Positions 4,003 to 45,127 of a stretch of 64,000 nucleotides of DNA are shown piece after piece. Positions within the stretch are counted from its first letter, which is position 1; every line of letters starts with the position of its first letter. The DNA is from a virus. Taxonomy: Duplodnaviria > Caudoviricetes. Made by a program: the position numbers and the translations under genes. Under the pieces are notes generated by a model. It had not been told where the DNA came from and did no database searches. It saw only the letters and a program-made list of their open reading frames with translations. Location of the stretch: IMG/VR virus record IMGVR_UViG_2615840601_000001; one strand, written 5' to 3'.

Positions 4003-4868
4003 GCAAGTATGATGACCTGATTGATTTGAGCAAGCTTGGCCCGCCTAAGCTGGTGGACTTGTCCGGTTATGACGCTCAGCTCTCGGCCCTGATGGCGGCA
4101 TACAAGCTACGATACCCGGATTTTGAAGACGAAACGGAATTTGAGCCGGTAAAGGCTCACTTTGGCGTTGATGCTTGGCTTGCAGACAATGTACGCGACA
4201 GGATCAATGAAGCGGGCAAGGCAACGCTGCTCGCCAGCGCGGGCGGTTCAGACCTTGAGGTGATTGGTTGGAGCCGGAATGTTGAGCGCAAGGTCATTGA
4301 TGAGGACGCGGGCATCTATGAGGATGACGATGACTTGCGCGAGCGCATTCACATGGCCCCGGAAAGCTGGTCGACGGCTGGGCCTCAAGGCGGATATGAA
4401 TTCTGGGCGGAAACGGTTGAGGCCGTCAAAGACGCACAAGCGATCAGCCCTTCACCGGCCGTGGTTGAAATCTATGTTGTCGGGCATGACACATCAGTCC
4501 CGGCTACGGAAGGCTTGCTGGCAGACGTAACCGCTGCAATCTCGGCAGACAACCGCCGCCCGATCGCCGATCGTGTGAGCGTTCATAGCGCGGACATCGT
4601 TCCTTATGATCTGGTTGCAACCATCAAGGTTCAATCCGGCCCCAGCCCTGACGTCATTCAAGCTGAAGCTGAAAAGGCGCTTGCCGCTTATCAGGAAAGC
4701 CGGGCCTATATCGGCAAAAGTCTGCCTGCGTCGGCACTCTATGCGGCTTTGACGGTCGCCGGTGCTGAAGAGGTTAGCTTGTCGCCAGCAGAAGGCGTTA
4801 CCGTTACGCAAACACAGATTGCGCACTGCAATTCGGTGACGATCAATGTGGAGGTGATCAATGTATGA
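3999..4868 (+). CDS. Baseplate J-like protein
   Basis: IDLSKL.PP, EDDDDLRERI...STAGP.GGYEFWA, RPIADRV. Confidence 0.92.
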   Translation: MSKYDDLIDLSKLGPPKLVDLSGYDAQLSALMAAYKLRYPDFEDETEFEPVKAHFGVDAWLADNVRDRINEAGKATLLASAGGSDLEVIGWSRNVERKVIDEDAGIYEDDDDLRERIHMAPESWSTAGPQGGYEFWAETVEAVKDAQAISPSPAVVEIYVVGHDTSVPATEGLLADVTAAISADNRRPIADRVSVHSADIVPYDLVATIKVQSGPSPDVIQAEAEKALAAYQESRAYIGKSLPASALYAALTVAGAEEVSLSPAEGVTVTQTQIAHCNSVTINVEVINV

Positions 4869-36177: not shown

Positions 36178-37445
36178 CTGCCTTTGCCGACATAGGGCCG
36201 TTTGAAGAGGCTCTGGACTTCCATCGCCAGAAGGTGCGTCTTCCGACCCGCGCCTGGTCCGATTTGCTCCATCATGGTCATGACCGGGCCTTTGTCGTGG
36301 CCGGGGCACAGAAGGATGCCATGCTGGAAGACTTCCAGATGGCCATTGATGACGCCATCGCAAAGGGCATGCCGCTCAAGGGATGGCTCGACAAGGATGA
36401 TACCTATCATCCCGGCTTTCTTGATCGCTTTGACGAGATCGTCAAAAAGCACGGCTGGGATTACAAGGGCGGACGCAACTGGCGTGCCCGCGTCATCTAT
36501 GAGACCAATCTCAAAACCGCCTATGCTGCCGGTCGCTACAAGCAGATGACCGATCCGGCCACGCTTAAGGCCTTTCCTTACTGGCAGTATAAGCATGCCT
36601 GGGAACGCATTCCGCTTCATCCGCGCGAAGAGCATGAAGCGTGGGATGGGCTGATCCTTCCGGCTGATGATCCATGGTGGCAGACCTATTACCCGCCCAA
36701 TGGCTGGAAATGCGGCTGTGGCGTGCGGCCAGTCAGTCGGGCAAAGCTCAAACGCGTTGGTAAGGAAGGCCCCGATACCGCCCCTTCCATCCAGTACCAA
36801 CAGAAACTGGATCCCGGCACAGGTGACCCAATCGACTATCCCGCTGGCGTCGATATGGGATGGGCCTATGCCCCAGGCCGGACATGGGCAGATGGACTGG
36901 TGCCAAGGGAACTGCAAAGATCAGCAGGCAGGCAAATGGAATTGCCGGAAATGAACAATCTGCCCGCCCTATCAGGTGGTTCCAAGCCTGTGATGGCTCC
37001 ACTTCTTCCTACTGGTCAAACACACGAATATTATGTGTCACAGTTCCTAGAGGCTTTTGATGCTGATCTTGATGAAGAAAAGAGCTTTCGGGACAAGGCG
37101 GGCAATATTGTTATTCTCAGCAGGAAACTATTCCAAAGGGCGGACGGTTCCAGCAAACTGAACAGCACCCGTGCTCCCGCCCTTAAGCAGCTCGCCGAAG
37201 CCATCATGGATCCAGATGAAATCTGGGTTGACTGGGAATGGCATGATGTGAGGAAGGAATGGATACTGAAGCGCCGTTATCTGCGCTCAGCTCCCAATCT
37301 TGCCGGGTTGCTTGTGTTCGAATGGTCCCAGCATGGCTGGTCAGCGACCACAGCCTACAATGCAGCACGTGGTCGCAAGCTCAAACCAAACCACAATCAA
37401 ATCAACAGCTGGCGACGGGGCCATTTGTTATGGCAGCGCAAATAA
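36156..37445 (+). CDS. Mu gpF head morphogenesis protein with C-terminal PBECR-like nuclease domain; probably entered by -1 frameshift from portal
   Basis: PFEEALDFHRQK lies upstream of first GTG (36234); IYETN..TAYAAGR, YPPNGWKCGC; LAEAIMDPDEIW. Confidence 0.8.
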   Translation, partial: KKKDQNLAAFADIGPFEEALDFHRQKVRLPTRAWSDLLHHGHDRAFVVAGAQKDAMLEDFQMAIDDAIAKGMPLKGWLDKDDTYHPGFLDRFDEIVKKHGWDYKGGRNWRARVIYETNLKTAYAAGRYKQMTDPATLKAFPYWQYKHAWERIPLHPREEHEAWDGLILPADDPWWQTYYPPNGWKCGCGVRPVSRAKLKRVGKEGPDTAPSIQYQQKLDPGTGDPIDYPAGVDMGWAYAPGRTWADGLVPRELQRSAGRQMELPEMNNLPALSGGSKPVMAPLLPTGQTHEYYVSQFLEAFDADLDEEKSFRDKAGNIVILSRKLFQRADGSSKLNSTRAPALKQLAEAIMDPDEIWVDWEWHDVRKEWILKRRYLRSAPNLAGLLVFEWSQHGWSATTAYNAARGRKLKPNHNQINSWRRGHLLWQRK

Positions 37446-37548: not shown

Positions 37549-38052
37549 ATGCCATTCCTCAGTTTCAGATATGACTATGCCTCCGCAGATCAGGAGATCC
37601 GCCGTCTGATCGACAAGATCGAAGACAAGGCCGCTATTCATCGTGTCATCGGCATGGCGCTCTATGATCAGACCATGGACCGGTTCGAGCGTGAAGAGAG
37701 CCCGGATGGCAACAAATGGGCACCGCTCGCCCCACTTACCCTCTCTAACCGCCGCCAGCCCAGGGGCATCTTGCGCGACAGCGGTGAGTTGATGCGCTCC
37801 ATCCATTTTGAAGCCTCATCCTCCCGCACGGAGGTCGGCACCAATCTCAACCATCCAAAGGTCTGGGTCATGCAGCGCGGCGCAACGATCAAGCCGCGCC
37901 GGTTCAACTCCCTGCGCATCCCTGTCTCACGCGGGGCTGAAGGCTATGTCTTCAGCAAGGGCGTGAAGATCCCCGCACGGCCTTATATCGGTATCGGACG
38001 GCAGGATGAAGAGGTGATCCGGGAGGAGCTGGAGGGGTATTTTGGGGACTGA
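37549..38052 (+). CDS. Virion morphogenesis protein gpG
   Basis: RF..E.SPDG.KWAPL, ILRDSGEL..SI, IPARPYIG. Confidence 0.88.
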   Translation: MPFLSFRYDYASADQEIRRLIDKIEDKAAIHRVIGMALYDQTMDRFEREESPDGNKWAPLAPLTLSNRRQPRGILRDSGELMRSIHFEASSSRTEVGTNLNHPKVWVMQRGATIKPRRFNSLRIPVSRGAEGYVFSKGVKIPARPYIGIGRQDEEVIREELEGYFGD

Positions 38053-38196: not shown

Positions 38197-38715
38197 TTAA
38201 TAAGGCAGTTTTAAAACGAAATGAAAGAGATTCCAAAACTTGCTTTCACCCGAATAGACCCGTCCTTCGAACCATTCAGCCGCTTTATAAACGGCATTGA
38301 AGCCCGCTCGTTCGTAGATGATATTGGCTTCATCAAAGCTGATGCATTTTGCTATTGGACTCGCTGCCCAATCATCATCTAGGCCCAATAGGGTCACGTA
38401 AATGGTGCCGTTATCATTCAATAGGGATTTTAAGCGACCGAGGAACTCCTCGAGGGAATAGGTGATATGGTGAGAAACGAGAGATGCAACGATAAGATCG
38501 TAGCGCTGAGTTGTGGTAAAATCTTCAAATCTGCTTTGAATGAAATTGATCTCTTTGTCTGAAGCCAATTCTTCAAAAACCACAGGATCAATTGCATCAA
38601 CGTTATGGCCCTTATTTGCGAAATACCTCGCCATCCCTCCCTCTCTTGCACCAACATCTAGCACTCTACCTGGTTTAGGTAATTCAATTCTCTCTATAAT
38701 ATCGGCGCGTATCAT
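38197..38715 (-). CDS. Class I SAM-dependent methyltransferase (cargo)
   Basis: VLDVGAREG, VDAID, YDLIV; low GC. Confidence 0.8.
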   Translation of the reverse strand: MIRADIIERIELPKPGRVLDVGAREGGMARYFANKGHNVDAIDPVVFEELASDKEINFIQSRFEDFTTTQRYDLIVASLVSHHITYSLEEFLGRLKSLLNDNGTIYVTLLGLDDDWAASPIAKCISFDEANIIYERAGFNAVYKAAEWFEGRVYSGESKFWNLFHFVLKLPY

Positions 38716-39092
38716 ACAGGCATCTTTCTCGACTGTTTGTTATTTGCAAGGCTGTCTCTTGCGGTGTCTTGAAGAAACCATAGCCTGTACGAGGAAAACG
38801 TCTCGAGCCAGCGTTTAGTTTTGCTAACTCACAGCTGCAAACGGTCCTGCCACTTTTAGTGTCCAATTTGGGCTCGAACCGGACTGGTGCAGTGCATCAT
38901 CATGCGACAACGCTCATCCAGGTTGGTGATTTGCAATCGCGGCCCCTTAAGAGACACTCAGCGATAAGCTGTCATACTGCGGCGCTCCCCTCCCATCCGG
39001 TCATTTGCCGCAGATGTGCAATCTCAGGGGAGATGCATATTCACGATGCGGACTTTATGGAACTACAGCGCGGTCTGTGGCAAGATCTTGCA

Positions 39093-39815
39093 ATGATAGA
39101 ATTCCGCTCCCTTTCCGATGACCATCCCGACCTCGCGCATTCCCCGCTGCTGCACGGTGCGCTCCTTACACTGCAATATGCGCAGAAGCACGGATCAATC
39201 GCTCTGACCAAATCTAAGGCCTTCAAGCGCATTTTCGTCCATTGGGCCGTCGAGAATTTCAATTGGCCAGGCAAAAGCGCAGAAGAGATGTTCCGCTATA
39301 ACAAGGTAATCAATGAATATGAGTTTCCTCCGCTCGAGATTATCCATTTCCTGCTCATCTCCCTGCGCCTGGGACGTCACTTCAAGGGTGAGTTTCGACT
39401 GACCAAGCGGGGCATAAAACTGGCGCAATCTCCTGGCCATCTGTTTGCCGAGTTGATCCCATACTTTGTGCTTCAGATGGATCACTCTTCTTATGCACGC
39501 TTTGAAAACCGTCCCTTCGGGAAGTGGGAGGTCTGGATGAATGTGATTAACGTCGAAGCCGATCAAGGCACGACCGAGGCTGCCTTGTTCGAAATCTTCT
39601 ACGGTGAGCCGCAAGATTGGCACACTGCAGGGTGGAGAGAGATGGCTGTGTTTTCAGCCTGTGTACTTCGTCCGCTCGAATGGGCTGGGTTGCTGGTGGA
39701 GACACGTGAAGAAGGAGGCAGCAAGCCTGTATGTCATGTGTTCAAAACCCCACTCTGGCGCAGCGCGATCAACCTTGATACCGACAACATGCTGCGGCCA
39801 ATATCCGTTCAATGA
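39093..39815 (+). CDS. Hypothetical protein (cargo)
   Basis: Long ORF, likely ATG 39093; flanked by degenerate repeats. Confidence 0.65.
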   Translation: MIEFRSLSDDHPDLAHSPLLHGALLTLQYAQKHGSIALTKSKAFKRIFVHWAVENFNWPGKSAEEMFRYNKVINEYEFPPLEIIHFLLISLRLGRHFKGEFRLTKRGIKLAQSPGHLFAELIPYFVLQMDHSSYARFENRPFGKWEVWMNVINVEADQGTTEAALFEIFYGEPQDWHTAGWREMAVFSACVLRPLEWAGLLVETREEGGSKPVCHVFKTPLWRSAINLDTDNMLRPISVQ

Positions 39816-40062
39816 GAGATGCTTTTTCGGCTACCAAGATGTGGCGCTTTTAGCGTTTGCGGCCCCAAGCGGTCGAGTGCGATGCGTAATGATGAAAGCC
39901 GCTCATCTAGGCTTGCGTTTTGCATTCGCGGCCCAAAGCTGCCTTTCGTGCACCTCGCAATGAACGTCCGGTTTGTCAGCCGAAGCGGAAATGCTAACTT
40001 AGATGGGTGGCAAGCGTTCGCTCTATTGCCACCACTTTGTGACACTTTCGGATCGAAAAATG

Positions 40063-40186
40063 GATAGTTGGGCGTGCCTGTATGTGTGTGGTCCGCAAAA
40101 GCGTAAACTTAGAAGGAACGCAGAGGCCTAGTAATGGGTCCCGTCGCGTCCAGCTCAGATATCTCAGGCAACCGCCCACAATTATC
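40063..40186 (-). ncRNA. DRT3-associated ncRNA with CACACACA tract
   Basis: Starts right after drt3b stop; 5' GATAATTGTGGGCGGTTGCCTG pairs with 3' CAGGCACGCCCAACTATC; tract at 40083-40090. Confidence 0.8.
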
Positions 40187-42121
40187 TTAGACCGCCGAGT
40201 ATACAGGCTGCAACTGCTTTCTTCTCAAAAAATGAGACGTTCTTCCGGCGTTCCAATCGACGAATGCAACGTGTTTTGCGAGCTTTTCGATATCATCGTC
40301 CGATAGGTCATCGACGCCACAAACTTCCTTTATTAAGGCCTTTCTTTTGCTAACCTTAATATAGGGACATCCTATAATATCGCTAAACATCAGGTATACC
40401 TCTGAACTAGTCCTGAGTTCTGTTTTGTTTCTACGAACCTGTTTGAGAGCCAACTTGGAGATGGTTTCGAGCGCCCTATCAACATCAACAGACGGCGATG
40501 CTTGCGCCAACAGAAAAATCATCGCAATAAATGAAAAGTACCCAATGCTTTTCCTTTTAAGCAACATGGTGCACAGCTCAATAACAGGGGGCTGGGATAA
40601 AAACAGGTCACTATTAACCGAAGCACCAAGCACAAGCAGATTACAAATTTCTAAGGAAATGTCTTTCTCAATCTTTTCCGGTTTATAGGTAGCAACTAGC
40701 TCCGTTATCTCATAAACGAGATAGCTATCTAGCGCTTCAGCTTCTGACAATCCGATTGCAGTCTTGAAATTCTTTAAGCTCTCGAGAATTTGGAAAGATT
40801 TATAGATCGGAGCAACGCGAAAATCTGACGCCAAAGAATAGAATAGAATTCGCAGAATGGATCTAACTCTATTAATGGCGTCAATTTTTGTTTTAGTCGT
40901 AAAACTTTCTGCCGACTTTAATACAGCTTTAACGGCCTTCCCTATCTGAAAATAGATCGAGCCGGTTACTTCGTTGAAAGTTGCATCTGTATCACGAACA
41001 ACTAGCCTTAACTCTTCAAGTAGGCTTCGCATGTTGCGGCGTATCTCTGTTTGTTCGTCCTCGTCATCAACTAACGGCCTTTTTGCTTCGGCTAGCAACC
41101 TAGTGGTAATATCTCCGATGCCTTGTTTTGCTCGGGTGATGTTGGTCACAAAAGGGCGGCGCAAATTTTCAAGTTTTCCCTCGTTCGGATACAGCTTATA
41201 CTCTTCTAAACAAGTTTCTACAGCTCGATTCAGTTCGTCGAGTACAGCTTCATTCCGTGTAAAGAGGAAAAAGTCATCGACATATCTACGGAAAGTGTAA
41301 TCACGCCCCTCGCGAAGGTGTTTATCCATTTTTAAGATTATATTTCTATCAATCTTCTGAAAGATTATCTCCGCAAAGACTCGTGATATCTCGGGTCCAA
41401 CAACAATTCCATTTGTTTCATTGTAATTGGACCGTTGCATCAGTGCATCGAACCGGCCCTCGAAGGTATACTTGTTTGCTTGGGCTTTAGAATAAGGTTT
41501 ATCCTTCACAGCCCATGTCACTGAATGGGTATAGATGTTAAAAAAGCACTTAGTTACATCAAGCTTTCTGAGATACTGAAATCGGCTCTCTAGCCTTAGA
41601 AGTTCGTTAGAGCCATAAAACTTGTCGAGCAAATTGTATTTTTTGACTGAAAAAAAGGATGGAGCAAAATTAATATCTAAGCGTCCATCTTCCGGCGCTA
41701 CATGTGCTAGTCCAAGCTTCTTCGCATTCCCTGCTTTCTTCAATTCTTCCTTCGAAACTTCCGGCAAAACTCTGTACGGAGCTCGAAGCGAGTATCTACT
41801 TTCACTGCATTCCGAAATGATTGTATTCGAATATCCTACTAAAAAAGTTGCCATTCTGATCTGGTGAAGTGGATGAACAATACTGAGTGTATTGAAGCCT
41901 CTGGCTCCTTTGCGAATCTGGTAGCTGAAAGGAATTGTGTAAGTCTCTGGCCTCAAAGGCCTCCTGTAGTCCCCATTTAAAAACTCTTGTGCTTTAACAG
42001 AAAGCCGAGACTTTCTTAGCTCGGATACGAAGAGAAATTCGTTGGAAAAGGTGACAGGAACCTCGTATGGCAGTGTTTCAGTCAAGAGAGGTCGCAATTT
42101 CCGTGCGTGTGGTTCAAGCAT
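40187..42121 (-). CDS. drt3b: Antiphage reverse transcriptase Drt3b (UG8-type)
   Basis: LLTETLPYEVP..FSN, LDVTKCF.NIYTHS..WA, GIVVGPEISRVFAE, RYVDD; 644 aa. Confidence 0.9.
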   Translation of the reverse strand: MLEPHARKLRPLLTETLPYEVPVTFSNEFLFVSELRKSRLSVKAQEFLNGDYRRPLRPETYTIPFSYQIRKGARGFNTLSIVHPLHQIRMATFLVGYSNTIISECSESRYSLRAPYRVLPEVSKEELKKAGNAKKLGLAHVAPEDGRLDINFAPSFFSVKKYNLLDKFYGSNELLRLESRFQYLRKLDVTKCFFNIYTHSVTWAVKDKPYSKAQANKYTFEGRFDALMQRSNYNETNGIVVGPEISRVFAEIIFQKIDRNIILKMDKHLREGRDYTFRRYVDDFFLFTRNEAVLDELNRAVETCLEEYKLYPNEGKLENLRRPFVTNITRAKQGIGDITTRLLAEAKRPLVDDEDEQTEIRRNMRSLLEELRLVVRDTDATFNEVTGSIYFQIGKAVKAVLKSAESFTTKTKIDAINRVRSILRILFYSLASDFRVAPIYKSFQILESLKNFKTAIGLSEAEALDSYLVYEITELVATYKPEKIEKDISLEICNLLVLGASVNSDLFLSQPPVIELCTMLLKRKSIGYFSFIAMIFLLAQASPSVDVDRALETISKLALKQVRRNKTELRTSSEVYLMFSDIIGCPYIKVSKRKALIKEVCGVDDLSDDDIEKLAKHVAFVDWNAGRTSHFLRRKQLQPVYSAV

Positions 42122-43403
42122 TCAACCAAGCCTTTCTTATTTCGGAAACAGTGGCACGCTTGAAGCGCACGGTCATCTTGTTTGTGAACCCCTTGTAAAA
42201 AGAGAGGTTCTTTAACTCTGCCAACTGCTCTGGCGTGAACGAAGCTTGAATTTCCGTTTTGAACTGGCTGTTACCTCCCCATAAAAGGGATGATAAAAAC
42301 CCATCTAACTCTTTCAGTTCGATTGGAGCAACTGAGACATTCTCAGGACCTTGCCGTCTGTATTGATACAAGCCGCATTTCCGATAATTGAAGTATATTC
42401 CGGTCCTGATTCTGGCTTTTTTCGATCCGTGAGTATGACCCGTCTTTCTAATTTCAAAATTGCTGGTGAGAAACTTCACTCGGTTTAGCAGCAAAGCAGC
42501 GTTCTTGTCTTTTTGGAATGCTTTCAAGCTAAGTATGATACGTGTCTTTCTGACTTTGATTTTGTCTTTAGATATCTTGACCAAGACTTGTCGGCTCATT
42601 CGAGCTCGAATTCCATTTGAGCATTCGAACGAATAACCGAGATAGGTGAACGAGCTGGCTGGCTTTTTGCAAGGATTTTTGTCTGAATCTGGTATCGACT
42701 CTAGAAAAGCATCTTCCGTCTTTGAGTTCAGTTCGAAATTTGGGCTTAGGATCTCCTTGATTTTGGCAAGTGCTGGATCGACCTTTTGCGTTGAAAACAA
42801 CAAAATGTCATCTGCGAAGCGAAAATATCGGTAAACCCCTTCGATCTCCATGACTTCTCGATCAAATTTACGCAGCGCAAGTTCGGCGAAGGTGGTGCTG
42901 AGGCCAAGTCCACGAGGGATGCCAGATTGTGTTCCCCCAAGTAGGCCCGACGTTTCTAGAACTCTCAGGACTGTCTTTACGTGTGAGTGTGTCTTTGTTG
43001 AACTAAGAATCTCTGCCAGTATTGCCTTTGCATCTACATTTTCGAAGAAAGATTTTATATCACACCGCAATACATAAAATGGTGAAGCGTCGAACAGAGT
43101 TTCTAAGACGCCGTTAACCACAGTGTCGCGGCTAGCCGAGCTAACACCATATTGTTTGTTCAAAGACCTCGCGGTCGCTCGTAGAGCGAGCGCACCGTGA
43201 AAGTTGTTAATCAAAAGCAGCTTTCGCCCTTTGGAAATCGGGACCGAGCGGTGATGAAAAGTGATTGTGCCATCATCCACCTGTTCGCGTATCTGAGAAA
43301 GAAGAGCCTCGCAATCCAATGCCAAATCGACACCAAACTTCCTGGAGTCGCCGACCCGAATACAGCTTCTAAGATATTTTTCAGAAAATGGACTAATCTG
43401 CAT
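42114..43403 (-). CDS. drt3a: Antiphage reverse transcriptase Drt3a (UG3-type)
   Basis: RCDIKSFFE, GIPRGLGLS, YFRFADD, FTYLGYSF; overlaps drt3b start by 8 nt. Confidence 0.9.
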   Translation of the reverse strand: MQISPFSEKYLRSCIRVGDSRKFGVDLALDCEALLSQIREQVDDGTITFHHRSVPISKGRKLLLINNFHGALALRATARSLNKQYGVSSASRDTVVNGVLETLFDASPFYVLRCDIKSFFENVDAKAILAEILSSTKTHSHVKTVLRVLETSGLLGGTQSGIPRGLGLSTTFAELALRKFDREVMEIEGVYRYFRFADDILLFSTQKVDPALAKIKEILSPNFELNSKTEDAFLESIPDSDKNPCKKPASSFTYLGYSFECSNGIRARMSRQVLVKISKDKIKVRKTRIILSLKAFQKDKNAALLLNRVKFLTSNFEIRKTGHTHGSKKARIRTGIYFNYRKCGLYQYRRQGPENVSVAPIELKELDGFLSSLLWGGNSQFKTEIQASFTPEQLAELKNLSFYKGFTNKMTVRFKRATVSEIRKAWLNA

Positions 43404-43889
43404 TATTGTTTACTTCTTATCAAAAGGTTGTAAATATTTCCGATACAATTTGATCCGCATGCAAGTTAGTTGAGCGATGTAAGCATAACAATACCAGAAA
43501 TTGCACAAAAACAGCAATGTGACTAAAACTGTCTTCGGTGCAGATAGCAGCAAAAGACTGCCTCCCGCCCGACCATGACGCAGCTATCAAAGCGAGCTTA
43601 AAGTTCCCGAGAATGTCCGCTTCTGCTGGCTACCATCAGGATTTTGCATCTGCGGGAAATGTCCGCAATCCGCCCACAGGCGTCGATCATCAAGCTTTCC
43701 GACAATTTGTCTCTGTCGCGTTTTGTACCCCCTCCCAGCCCCCACCATACCCAAAATTTCCGCGAGCCGCGTTAAAGGCGCGTTAGAAAGCCATTGAGGG
43801 CCTATTGTTGCGGTTGGGTTGCCTCTCATCTGCCGTTGGTGATAGAAGGGCGATAGCTTCCCCCCAAAAATTGACTTCATATGCCGCCC

Positions 43890-43930
43890 GGAACAGTTCC
43901 GGCGAGCGCCATCATTTTACCTGCCATGTT
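43890..43930 (+). promoter_or_regulatory. Putative late promoter (GGAACAGTTCC + CATGTT)
   Basis: Recurrent motif, 24-nt spacer, upstream of protease. Confidence 0.6.
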
Positions 43931-43960
43931 GCCATCAACTTGATCCCAAGGAGATGCGGC

Positions 43961-45127
43961 GTGGCCAAGGTTGATGACAAAGACAAAACGAAGCGCATTG
44001 AGGTGTTCCGTCCGGGCACGTTTACGGCGATGGGCGGCATGGCGTTCAGTGCGTCTGCTGAAGACCTGGCTGGTCTGGCTCAGCGTTATGATCCTGACGC
44101 ATATCCTGTGCCTGTTGTTGTTGGCCATCCCAAGACTGACGATCCCGCCTATGGCTGGGTGAAGGCCTTTTCCTATGATGATGAGGCGGATCGCCTCTTT
44201 GCCGAGATCGGTGATCTGGAGCCACAGTTCGCCGATGCGGTTGCGCAGCATCGCTACAAGCGCGTCTCCATGGCTTTTTATAAACCAGGTGCAAGCTCCA
44301 ATCCTGCGGGCGATGCTCTCTATCCCAAACATGTCGGGTTTCTTGGGGCTGTGGCTCCTGCTGTGCCCGGTTTGAAGCCGGTGGAATTTGCCGGTGAGGC
44401 GGATGATGTCATCGCCGTCGAGTTTGCCGATGCCGCCTTCAAGGATGTTGCCAGCATCTTTCGCCGTTTCCGTGACTGGCTGATCGCCAACGAAGGTCTG
44501 GAGACCGCAGACAATGTGCTGCCCGACTATCAGATCCGCTGGATCGACGATGCTGGCGACCTGCCTCCCGACATTCCTTCCCCCGAATTTTCTGAAGACG
44601 AGGAACCCACCATGGCCCTGAAGCCCGCCAAATCCAAACCCGCCCAGACCGCCACTACACAACCAAGCGAAGCTGAGCTTACCTTTGCTGAGCGAGAGGC
44701 CGAGCTGAACGCCCGTCAGGCAGAGCTGGACGAGCGGGAAGCCGAACAGCGCCATGAGACCCATGTCGCCTTTGCCGAAGGCCTTGTCGATGATGGCCGC
44801 CTGCCATCGGGCAACCGGGCCAAGGTGGTGGCCCTGCTCGATGGCGCTTCTGAGCTTGATGCGGACGAGATCGAATTTGCCGATGGCAACGAGACCAAGA
44901 AAGCCGATCTGGTCGATCTCTTGAAAGACGTGCTCAAGACCCAGCCTCCCATCATCCAGTTTGGCGAGATGGATCTGGGTGATGCACCGGACGGCAAGGA
45001 GCCTGATCCCGAGGTCATCGCCAATGAGGCGGTTGCCTTCCAGGTCTCCCAGCGTGAAGCGGGGATTGAGGTCTCCACGTCCGACGCCATTTCCCACATC
45101 CGCCAGAAGCGTGGCCTGACAGACTAA
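43961..45127 (+). CDS. Prohead protease/scaffold (Mu gpI/Z-like)
   Basis: GTG with RBS AAGGAG; IEVFRPG, GHP, PAYGWV, HVGFLGA..PAV.GL. Confidence 0.9.
   Translation: MAKVDDKDKTKRIEVFRPGTFTAMGGMAFSASAEDLAGLAQRYDPDAYPVPVVVGHPKTDDPAYGWVKAFSYDDEADRLFAEIGDLEPQFADAVAQHRYKRVSMAFYKPGASSNPAGDALYPKHVGFLGAVAPAVPGLKPVEFAGEADDVIAVEFADAAFKDVASIFRRFRDWLIANEGLETADNVLPDYQIRWIDDAGDLPPDIPSPEFSEDEEPTMALKPAKSKPAQTATTQPSEAELTFAEREAELNARQAELDEREAEQRHETHVAFAEGLVDDGRLPSGNRAKVVALLDGASELDADEIEFADGNETKKADLVDLLKDVLKTQPPIIQFGEMDLGDAPDGKEPDPEVIANEAVAFQVSQREAGIEVSTSDAISHIRQKRGLTD

Follow-up and report, generated by a model that had tools for sequence, protein, structure and literature searches.

A putative DRT3 noncoding RNA with an alternating AC tract, adjoining the drt3a-drt3b genes carried by a Mu-like prophage

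The 124 nucleotides that follow drt3b on the minus strand, at positions 40063-40186 of the window (the whole 64,000-nt stretch of viral DNA that was analysed), very probably represent the noncoding RNA (ncRNA) of a type 3 defence-associated reverse transcriptase (DRT3) system, with a short alternating AC tract acting as the template of Drt3a. What the analysis shows is which genes these are, that the AC tract has a conserved position, that the closing helix covaries, and that the proteins retain their catalytic, gate and priming residues. Transcription, RNA ends, DNA products and defence at this locus are deduced by homology, and the RNA is probably transcribed together with, or just after, drt3a-drt3b. 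The mechanism of DRT3 was already published in 2026; the locus is a divergent further example of it, and introduces no new principle.

The drt3a gene, the drt3b gene and the 124-nt stretch all lie on the minus strand and are directly consecutive. drt3a (42114-43403) encodes a UG3/class 2 reverse transcriptase of 429 residues, and drt3b (40187-42121) a UG8/class 1 reverse transcriptase of 644 residues, of the type that has an alpha-repeat domain and a C-terminal tail. Both were assigned with PADLOC, in which the Drt3a model matches residues 2-428 (E 4.4e-97) and the Drt3b model residues 6-642 (E 2.5e-160), with all other DRT models far weaker for both ORFs; Pfam returns RVT_1 alone for either protein. 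The solved DRT3 structures that were matched are 9z6y and 9z6z (Deng et al., 2026) and 26cz (Wang et al., 2026), all from E. coli DRT3. Drt3a aligns with chain 9z6y_A ('Drt3a') over residues 6-426 (E 2.5e-28), and Drt3b with 9z6y_H over residues 10-641 (E 6.6e-78) and with 26cz_A (E 1.8e-81). The nearest relatives of Drt3b are 53-54% identical to it, and E. coli-type relatives less than 30%.

In the window the two genes overlap by 8 nt. The same overlap is found in annotated Phaeobacter and E. coli loci, and the annotated overlap in a further locus, L104, is 10 nt. The order drt3a-drt3b-ncRNA is also annotated in L096, in the E. coli locus L103 and in L104, and in 43 of 45 loci checked drt3b is preceded by a Drt3a-like ORF that has an xxDD motif. 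A consensus scan places a promoter-like site (TTTACA-18-AACAAT) at 43405-43434 on the minus strand, upstream of drt3a; promoter-like sites in this region are no commoner than in shuffled sequences, and the site is a weak lead.

Both proteins have a catalytic motif. Drt3a contains the catalytic xxDD motif as RFADDILL; the FADD form of motif C is common to L001, L016, L017 and L020, and FADD-type Drt3a co-occurs with a GA(A)GAU motif in the RNA (see below). The catalytic motif of Drt3b is RYVDDFF, with YVDD at residues 280-283. Alignment to 26cz, for which an offset of 108 residues from the SUMO tag was assumed, pairs E20, R247 and Y641 of the window Drt3b with E22, R241 and Y666 of the E. coli protein, which are the two gate residues and the priming tyrosine. 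The position of E. coli R71, a residue that contributes to synthesis but is not a defining one, is occupied by N77 (encoded in the region 41890-41893), as it is by asparagine in L001, and an arginine, R74, lies three residues upstream. The Drt3b proteins of the window and L001 also extend three residues past the priming tyrosine. In seven homologues that are more distant the R71 position is an arginine, and the majority of these proteins stop with the tyrosine or one residue later.

The stop codon of drt3b (TAA, 40189-40187) is followed immediately by the predicted RNA, which begins at G40186. The coordinates and pairings proposed in the first-pass annotation were reproduced on the minus strand, and so was the branched fold with an unpaired tract, on which the minimum free energy (MFE) and centroid structures agree. 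The predicted minimal extent of the RNA, based on its fold, the folds of relatives and covariance models, forms a three-way junction. Its closing helix starts 8 nt after the stop codon and pairs UGGGCG (40178-40173) with CGCCCA (40074-40069) and UGCCUG (40170-40165) with CAGGCA (40080-40075). The tract CACACACA (40090-40083), preceded by C at 40091, is located 2 nt 5' of the 3' arm and stays unpaired in the MFE structure as well as in the centroid; conservation among relatives and mutagenesis of E. coli DRT3 point to C-CACACACA as the putative Drt3a template. An internal stem-loop (40116-40151) pairs GGACGCG (40151-40145) with UGCGUUC (40122-40116) and has an inner GGG/CCU stem with the loop ACCCAUUACUAGG. 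A short hairpin of 3 bp, CGC-UUUU-GCG (40094-40103), ends 3 nt (GAC) before C-CACACACA and hence 4 nt before the alternating run, and is the positional counterpart of the published 'stem-loop 4'.

Directly after the 5' arm lies a GAGAU motif (40161-40165), which is conserved within the sub-clade: GAGAU, GAAGAU or UAGAU is found in the window, L001, L016, L017, L018, L021, L025, L026, L027 and L096, and is not family-wide. The outermost pairing that had been proposed can form, as GAUA (40186-40183) with UAUC (40066-40063), but it is not conserved in the closest relatives.

On its own, the evidence from single-sequence folding is moderate. The 124-nt fold has an MFE of -38.7 kcal/mol (z -2.48), with 2 of 200 shuffled sequences as stable, and the z-score drops to -0.45 when 241 nt of context are included. 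The octamer CACACACA occurs once in the 64-kb window and is expected 1.5 times by chance, so the motif by itself is not significant. In this longer context the 3' arm (40075-40082) can alternatively pair with GCCUGUAU (40201-40210), where drt3b encodes its conserved QPVY terminus, at -15.3 kcal/mol versus -22.2 kcal/mol for the cognate arm. In four relatives the alternative pairing reaches -7.8 (L016 and L018 each), -14.6 (L001) and -15.0 kcal/mol (L017), and it may be a chance complementarity. The DRT3 ncRNA is represented by a covariance model of Wang et al. (2026) and by no Rfam family; a search of positions 38500-44500 against Rfam 15 with a limit of E 1 returned nothing but a chance match to Histone3. 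About 30 nt past the ncRNA, between convergent genes, a perfect 8-bp hairpin (GGUGGCAA-12 nt-UUGCCACC, 40006-40033) is present without a U-run, and may mark the end of a transcript on either strand.

Comparison with relatives shows that the closing helix covaries. In an alignment of six sequences (the window, L001, L016, L018, L017 and L022), 7 of the 12 closing-helix pairs have changes on both sides. Over all 20 modelled pairs, 97% of the cells are paired; column shuffles give 82%, and sliding the partners by 1-3 columns gives 33-45%. The alignment was fitted to the model, which favours the structure. When the window is aligned with its nearest relatives, both parts of the helix likewise stay paired through two-sided changes: UA, CG or GC at pair 10/142 (CA, unpaired, in L016), GC or AU at pair 13/139, and CG or UA at pair 14/138. 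The internal hairpins have little or no support from covariation. L001 and L016 retain the inner pairs of the internal stem-loop and some of its outer stem, and its five modelled pairs are 100% paired, with one-sided variation. Folded separately, L001, L016 and L018 each give this three-way junction too, and the tract is again unpaired.

The arms of the wider family are too different to align, and therefore we used a swap test across 65 non-redundant loci, in which the 5' region of a locus was paired either with its own post-tract region or with those of the other loci. Cognate arms pair with a mean of -23.1 kcal/mol versus -14.7 kcal/mol for swapped arms, and none of 10000 permutations reaches the observed mean; the loci are not independent, as relatives share arms, but the effect is large all the same. 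Shuffling the arms within each locus is uninformative for GC-rich arms such as those of the window (z -0.26). In 48 of the 65 loci a helix ends within 5 nt before the tract. These pre-tract hairpins are no more stable than shuffled sequences (median z -0.23 over the 65 loci), and are backed by their position only.

The AC tract was surveyed across the family. Drt3b loci were collected from species genomes (14), from metagenomes (the best 80 of 438), from two plasmids and, in addition, from two E. coli chromosomes. The survey of downstream regions covered 87 of the 96 genome, metagenome and plasmid loci; nine loci (L002, L009, L012, L013, L019, L031, L046, L090 and L092) were dropped, having a broken match or a match at a contig end. 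Removal of seven loci without a stop codon before the contig end and three with less than 280 nt downstream left 77. A sense ACACAC is present within 200 nt past the drt3b stop codon in 69 of these 77 loci; extending the range to 300 nt raises the count to 71. In control 200-nt windows from the same loci, ACACAC was found in 36 of 2023 on the sense strand and 39 of 2023 on the antisense strand (~2%). In most loci the tract is located 1-5 nt 5' of the 3' arm. Among 64 non-redundant tracts, in which ACACAC itself is invariant by selection, the preceding base is C in 57, and the alternating run is 7 nt long in 37, 9 nt in ten, 8 nt in eight (the length in the window), 6 nt in five and 10 nt in four. 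Judged from this comparison with relatives, the conservation of the tract and of the helix goes beyond chance. The 77-locus survey provides an independent check of the published family-wide conservation of the ACACAC template.

The eight loci without ACACAC within 200 nt are partly accounted for. The ORFs of two of them (L079 and L093) are truncated, the end of the ORF was mis-assigned in L056, and in L073 the tract is found at +196. In L047 the tract is found at +357, within a much longer RNA closed by GCAAAGUGG/CCACUUUGC; this closing helix spans ~370 nt (4429-4810 of L047), and would delimit a much enlarged ncRNA. The remaining three have UACACG in the place of the template: L053, which has ACACAC at +267 and yet carries UACACG at the equivalent place before the 3' arm, and, like it, L067 and L006. 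The UACACG(C) sequences are located at 4432+ in L053, 2025+ in L067 and 4371+ in L006, and the Drt3b proteins of these loci retain the E/R gates and the terminal tyrosine. Either four nucleotides of ACAC may be enough as a template in these systems, or their product may differ.

Two covariance models were built, a check that had been suggested for the RNA. Model R1 was built from four sequences and searched in 79 sources, giving six matches at E up to 1; model R2 was searched with filters off in 15 sources. Both match a single place in the window and in the copy of the locus in its own genome (L015). With R2, the expected places in L027, L021 and L024 are recovered at E 0.8-2.7 only, amid false matches of similar score. 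Neither model reaches the E. coli type or bridges the sub-clades, as both are too narrow, and for this reason no family-wide covariance alignment was used. A MAFFT alignment of 13 RNAs was rejected, with the helix arms misaligned. Since no significant alignment was obtained, homology of the window RNA to the E. coli ncRNA is argued from layout and position.

The experimental reference is E. coli DRT3. According to the preprint by Wang et al. (2026; bioRxiv, PMC13174585), an ncRNA downstream of drt3b exposes a conserved loop sequence, 5'-ACACAC-3'. Drt3a reads this template again and again to make poly(dTdG), in a reaction that needs the RNA, dGTP and dTTP. Mutation of the tract alone, with the stems left in place, abolishes both poly(dTdG) and defence. 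Drt3b makes poly(dCdA) without RNA, templated by the protein itself; it primes on Y666, and its gates are E22 and R241. The two strands form a duplex whose level RecBCD restricts, and the lambda Gam protein triggers toxicity (Wang et al., 2026). A 6:6:6 complex with an ACACAC template is described by Deng et al. (Science 2026), as summarized in two reviews (PMC13314766 and PMC13213688). The first-pass annotation agrees with these sources. Its suggestion that Drt3a could copy the tract iteratively into poly(GT), in the manner of telomerase, corresponds to the published E. coli mechanism and would extend to the window by homology. Of the two sources it had considered for the complementary strand, copying of the Drt3a product by Drt3b is not the published mechanism, and template-independent, protein-guided synthesis is.

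Following this precedent, we propose that C-CACACACA, flanked by the short hairpin on one side and by the 3' arm on the other, would be kept single-stranded by the closing helix. Drt3a would bind the RNA and recopy the AC repeats, realigning the product as in telomerase or DRT10, which would yield poly(dTdG). Drt3b would act without RNA: it would prime on its C-terminal Y641 and add dC and dA in turn, as dictated by the active-site residues E20 and R247. Annealing of both strands would then produce a poly(GT/AC) duplex DNA. The host RecBCD would keep the duplex at a low level, and inhibition of RecBCD by an infecting phage would let it accumulate and lead to abortive infection.

A link to the experimental systems is provided by L103 (E. 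coli GF3-3 chromosome, 1136958-1143285). Its Drt3b matches 9z6y_H with 1444 bits over 650 of 650 residues, and from this full-length match we infer that L103 is the system of Deng et al. (2026), or nearly so. The sequence downstream of its drt3b repeats the layout of the window RNA and reads, in order, GCAACC...CCCU from the stop codon, hairpins, GCUC-AA-GAGC, CACACAC and AGGG...GGUUGC; its single-sequence MFE structure lacks the closing helix. The E. coli plasmid locus L097 corresponds to neither experimental system, and a megablast of the window locus against E. coli genomes gave no match.

The window locus shares with E. coli DRT3 the gene order drt3a-drt3b-ncRNA, the pairing of a class 2 with a class 1 reverse transcriptase, and a single-stranded ACACAC with a hairpin on one side and, on the other, the 3' arm of a closing helix whose start is at the drt3b stop codon. 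The E and R gates, the YVDD motif and the C-terminal priming tyrosine of Drt3b are common to both as well. However, gammaproteobacterial Drt3b relatives are only 26-30% identical to the window protein, and the window RNA measures ~124 nt compared with ~160 nt in L103 (according to our own reading of L103), without detectable sequence similarity outside the tract. Motif C of the window Drt3a is FADD rather than YVDD, and Drt3b differs by the asparagine at the R71 position and the three residues after the priming tyrosine. The carriers are different too, a Mu-like prophage in the window and a P4-like element in L103.

The use of a short, structure-bounded template in the reverse transcriptase's own RNA, recopied into tandem-repeat DNA, is shared with DRT10 (UG17) and eukaryotic telomerase, according to the accounts in PMC12632851 and PMC13174585. 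In contrast, DRT10 has one reverse transcriptase with a SLATT effector and is protein-primed, whereas DRT3 has a second, template-free reverse transcriptase for the complementary strand; the window Drt3a matches the PADLOC model RT_UG17 with E 4e-26, against 4e-97 for Drt3a. A similar likeness exists to DRT9 (UG28), in which a structured ncRNA beside the reverse transcriptase gene presents a short looped template for repetitive DNA synthesis, as described in PMC13174585. DRT9 differs in making poly-dA from a single reverse transcriptase, and the Drt9 model gives the window proteins much weaker scores (E 5e-11).

The divergence of Drt3b is relevant to the alternative that fares best, namely that RNA and tract are those of a real DRT3 system in which the register or the product differs from E. 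coli, so that the duplex would not be a pure GT/AC repeat. Copying might run into the flanking C/GAC or start in the AUA, or the nucleotide choice of Drt3b might be altered by N77. In E. coli, R71 stacks on the incoming dA, and R71A and R71K lower synthesis; stem-loop 4 adjoins the template, and read-through into the adjacent stem-loop truncates the products (PMC13174585). The asparagine at this position in the window and L001 is a point in favour of a different product, as is the variation in tract length from 6 to 10 nt among loci. On the other hand, E20, R247, YVDD and the priming tyrosine are retained, R74 may substitute from its place three residues upstream, and the tract with its preceding C is typical of the family. 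We consider a deviating product quite improbable, and prefer the reading in which the tract templates a GT repeat as in E. coli.

The DRT3 cassette is foreign, low-GC cargo in a Mu-like prophage. The region 20741-53078 of the window is a transposable prophage resembling RcapMu. Ahead of the cassette it encodes an S24 repressor, Mu transposase, a MuB-like ATPase, DUF3164 and GemA, followed by a muramidase, the large terminase, the Mu portal, a MuF-like protein and a Mu G-like protein (37549-38052); beyond the cassette lie the genes of the protease/scaffold (43805-45127), major head, sheath and tape measure proteins. The GC content is 0.43-0.46 over 40-44 kb and ~0.56 on either side. The gap between the G-like and protease genes amounts to 5752 nt in the window versus 267 nt in RcapMu, the nearest phage found. 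It is presumably the slot in which Mu-like Pseudomonas phages carry anti-CRISPR genes.

In addition to the ncRNA, drt3b and drt3a, the 5752-nt gap holds a small SAM-methyltransferase gene (38197-38715, minus strand; a weak PADLOC mad2 match, E 1e-12) and an ORF of 318 residues (38859-39815, plus strand) that has no match in Pfam, PADLOC or PHROG. Neither has a counterpart in other DRT3 loci, and so they are not counted as parts of DRT3. The MuF-like head protein upstream (36234-37445, plus strand) carries a C-terminal PBECR2 nuclease-like, toxin-like domain (Pfam, E 7e-32). A search of the window's own genome with the Pfam Mu Gam family gave no match, and the controls gave none either. Among 401 sampled genomes of the host's order, five contain DRT3, including that of the window.

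The location of the cassette inside a prophage, on the strand opposite the late genes, and its foreign GC content would also fit decaying, silent or non-functional cargo, with the RNA as a relic. We regard this as highly improbable: neither ORF is shortened, both retain their catalytic motifs, the 8-nt overlap is kept, the two arms of the helix pair without a mismatch, and the tract is undamaged. That the stem-loops are a mere 3' untranslated region or terminator of drt3b, next to a CA tract arisen by chance, has a negligible probability, because the U-run after the outer stem (40060-40056), the chance-level octamer count and the weak fold in longer context are set against a tract at a fixed place beside a covarying helix, present in 69 of 77 loci and in ~2% of control windows, a terminator scan without a minus-strand site at the ncRNA, and a U-run that is not conserved in L001 and L016.

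The system lies on a mobile element that differs from that of E. coli. L103 is found in a P4-like element beside ssrA, together with capsid, polarity-suppression and integrase genes, and the window locus in a Mu-like prophage, which indicates that DRT3 rides different mobile elements in different hosts. As DRT3 fires upon inhibition of RecBCD, and a transposable phage replicates without free DNA ends, such a phage might carry DRT3 unfired. We speculate, and hold it to be rather unlikely, that two things are true jointly: that the cassette is a weapon of the prophage against competing phages that stays unfired in its own lytic cycle, and that it belongs to a separate, minimal DRT3 lineage of alphaproteobacterial type. 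If so, the 124-nt RNA, the FADD-type Drt3a and the N77 Drt3b would define that lineage, and its RNA-protein contacts would be unlike those in the solved E. coli complex. The value of the locus is comparative: it is a distant DRT3 with a shorter RNA that keeps only the tract, the closing helix and the pre-tract hairpin, and thereby helps to define the minimal RNA of the family, and it shows DRT3 travelling as cargo of a Mu-like prophage.
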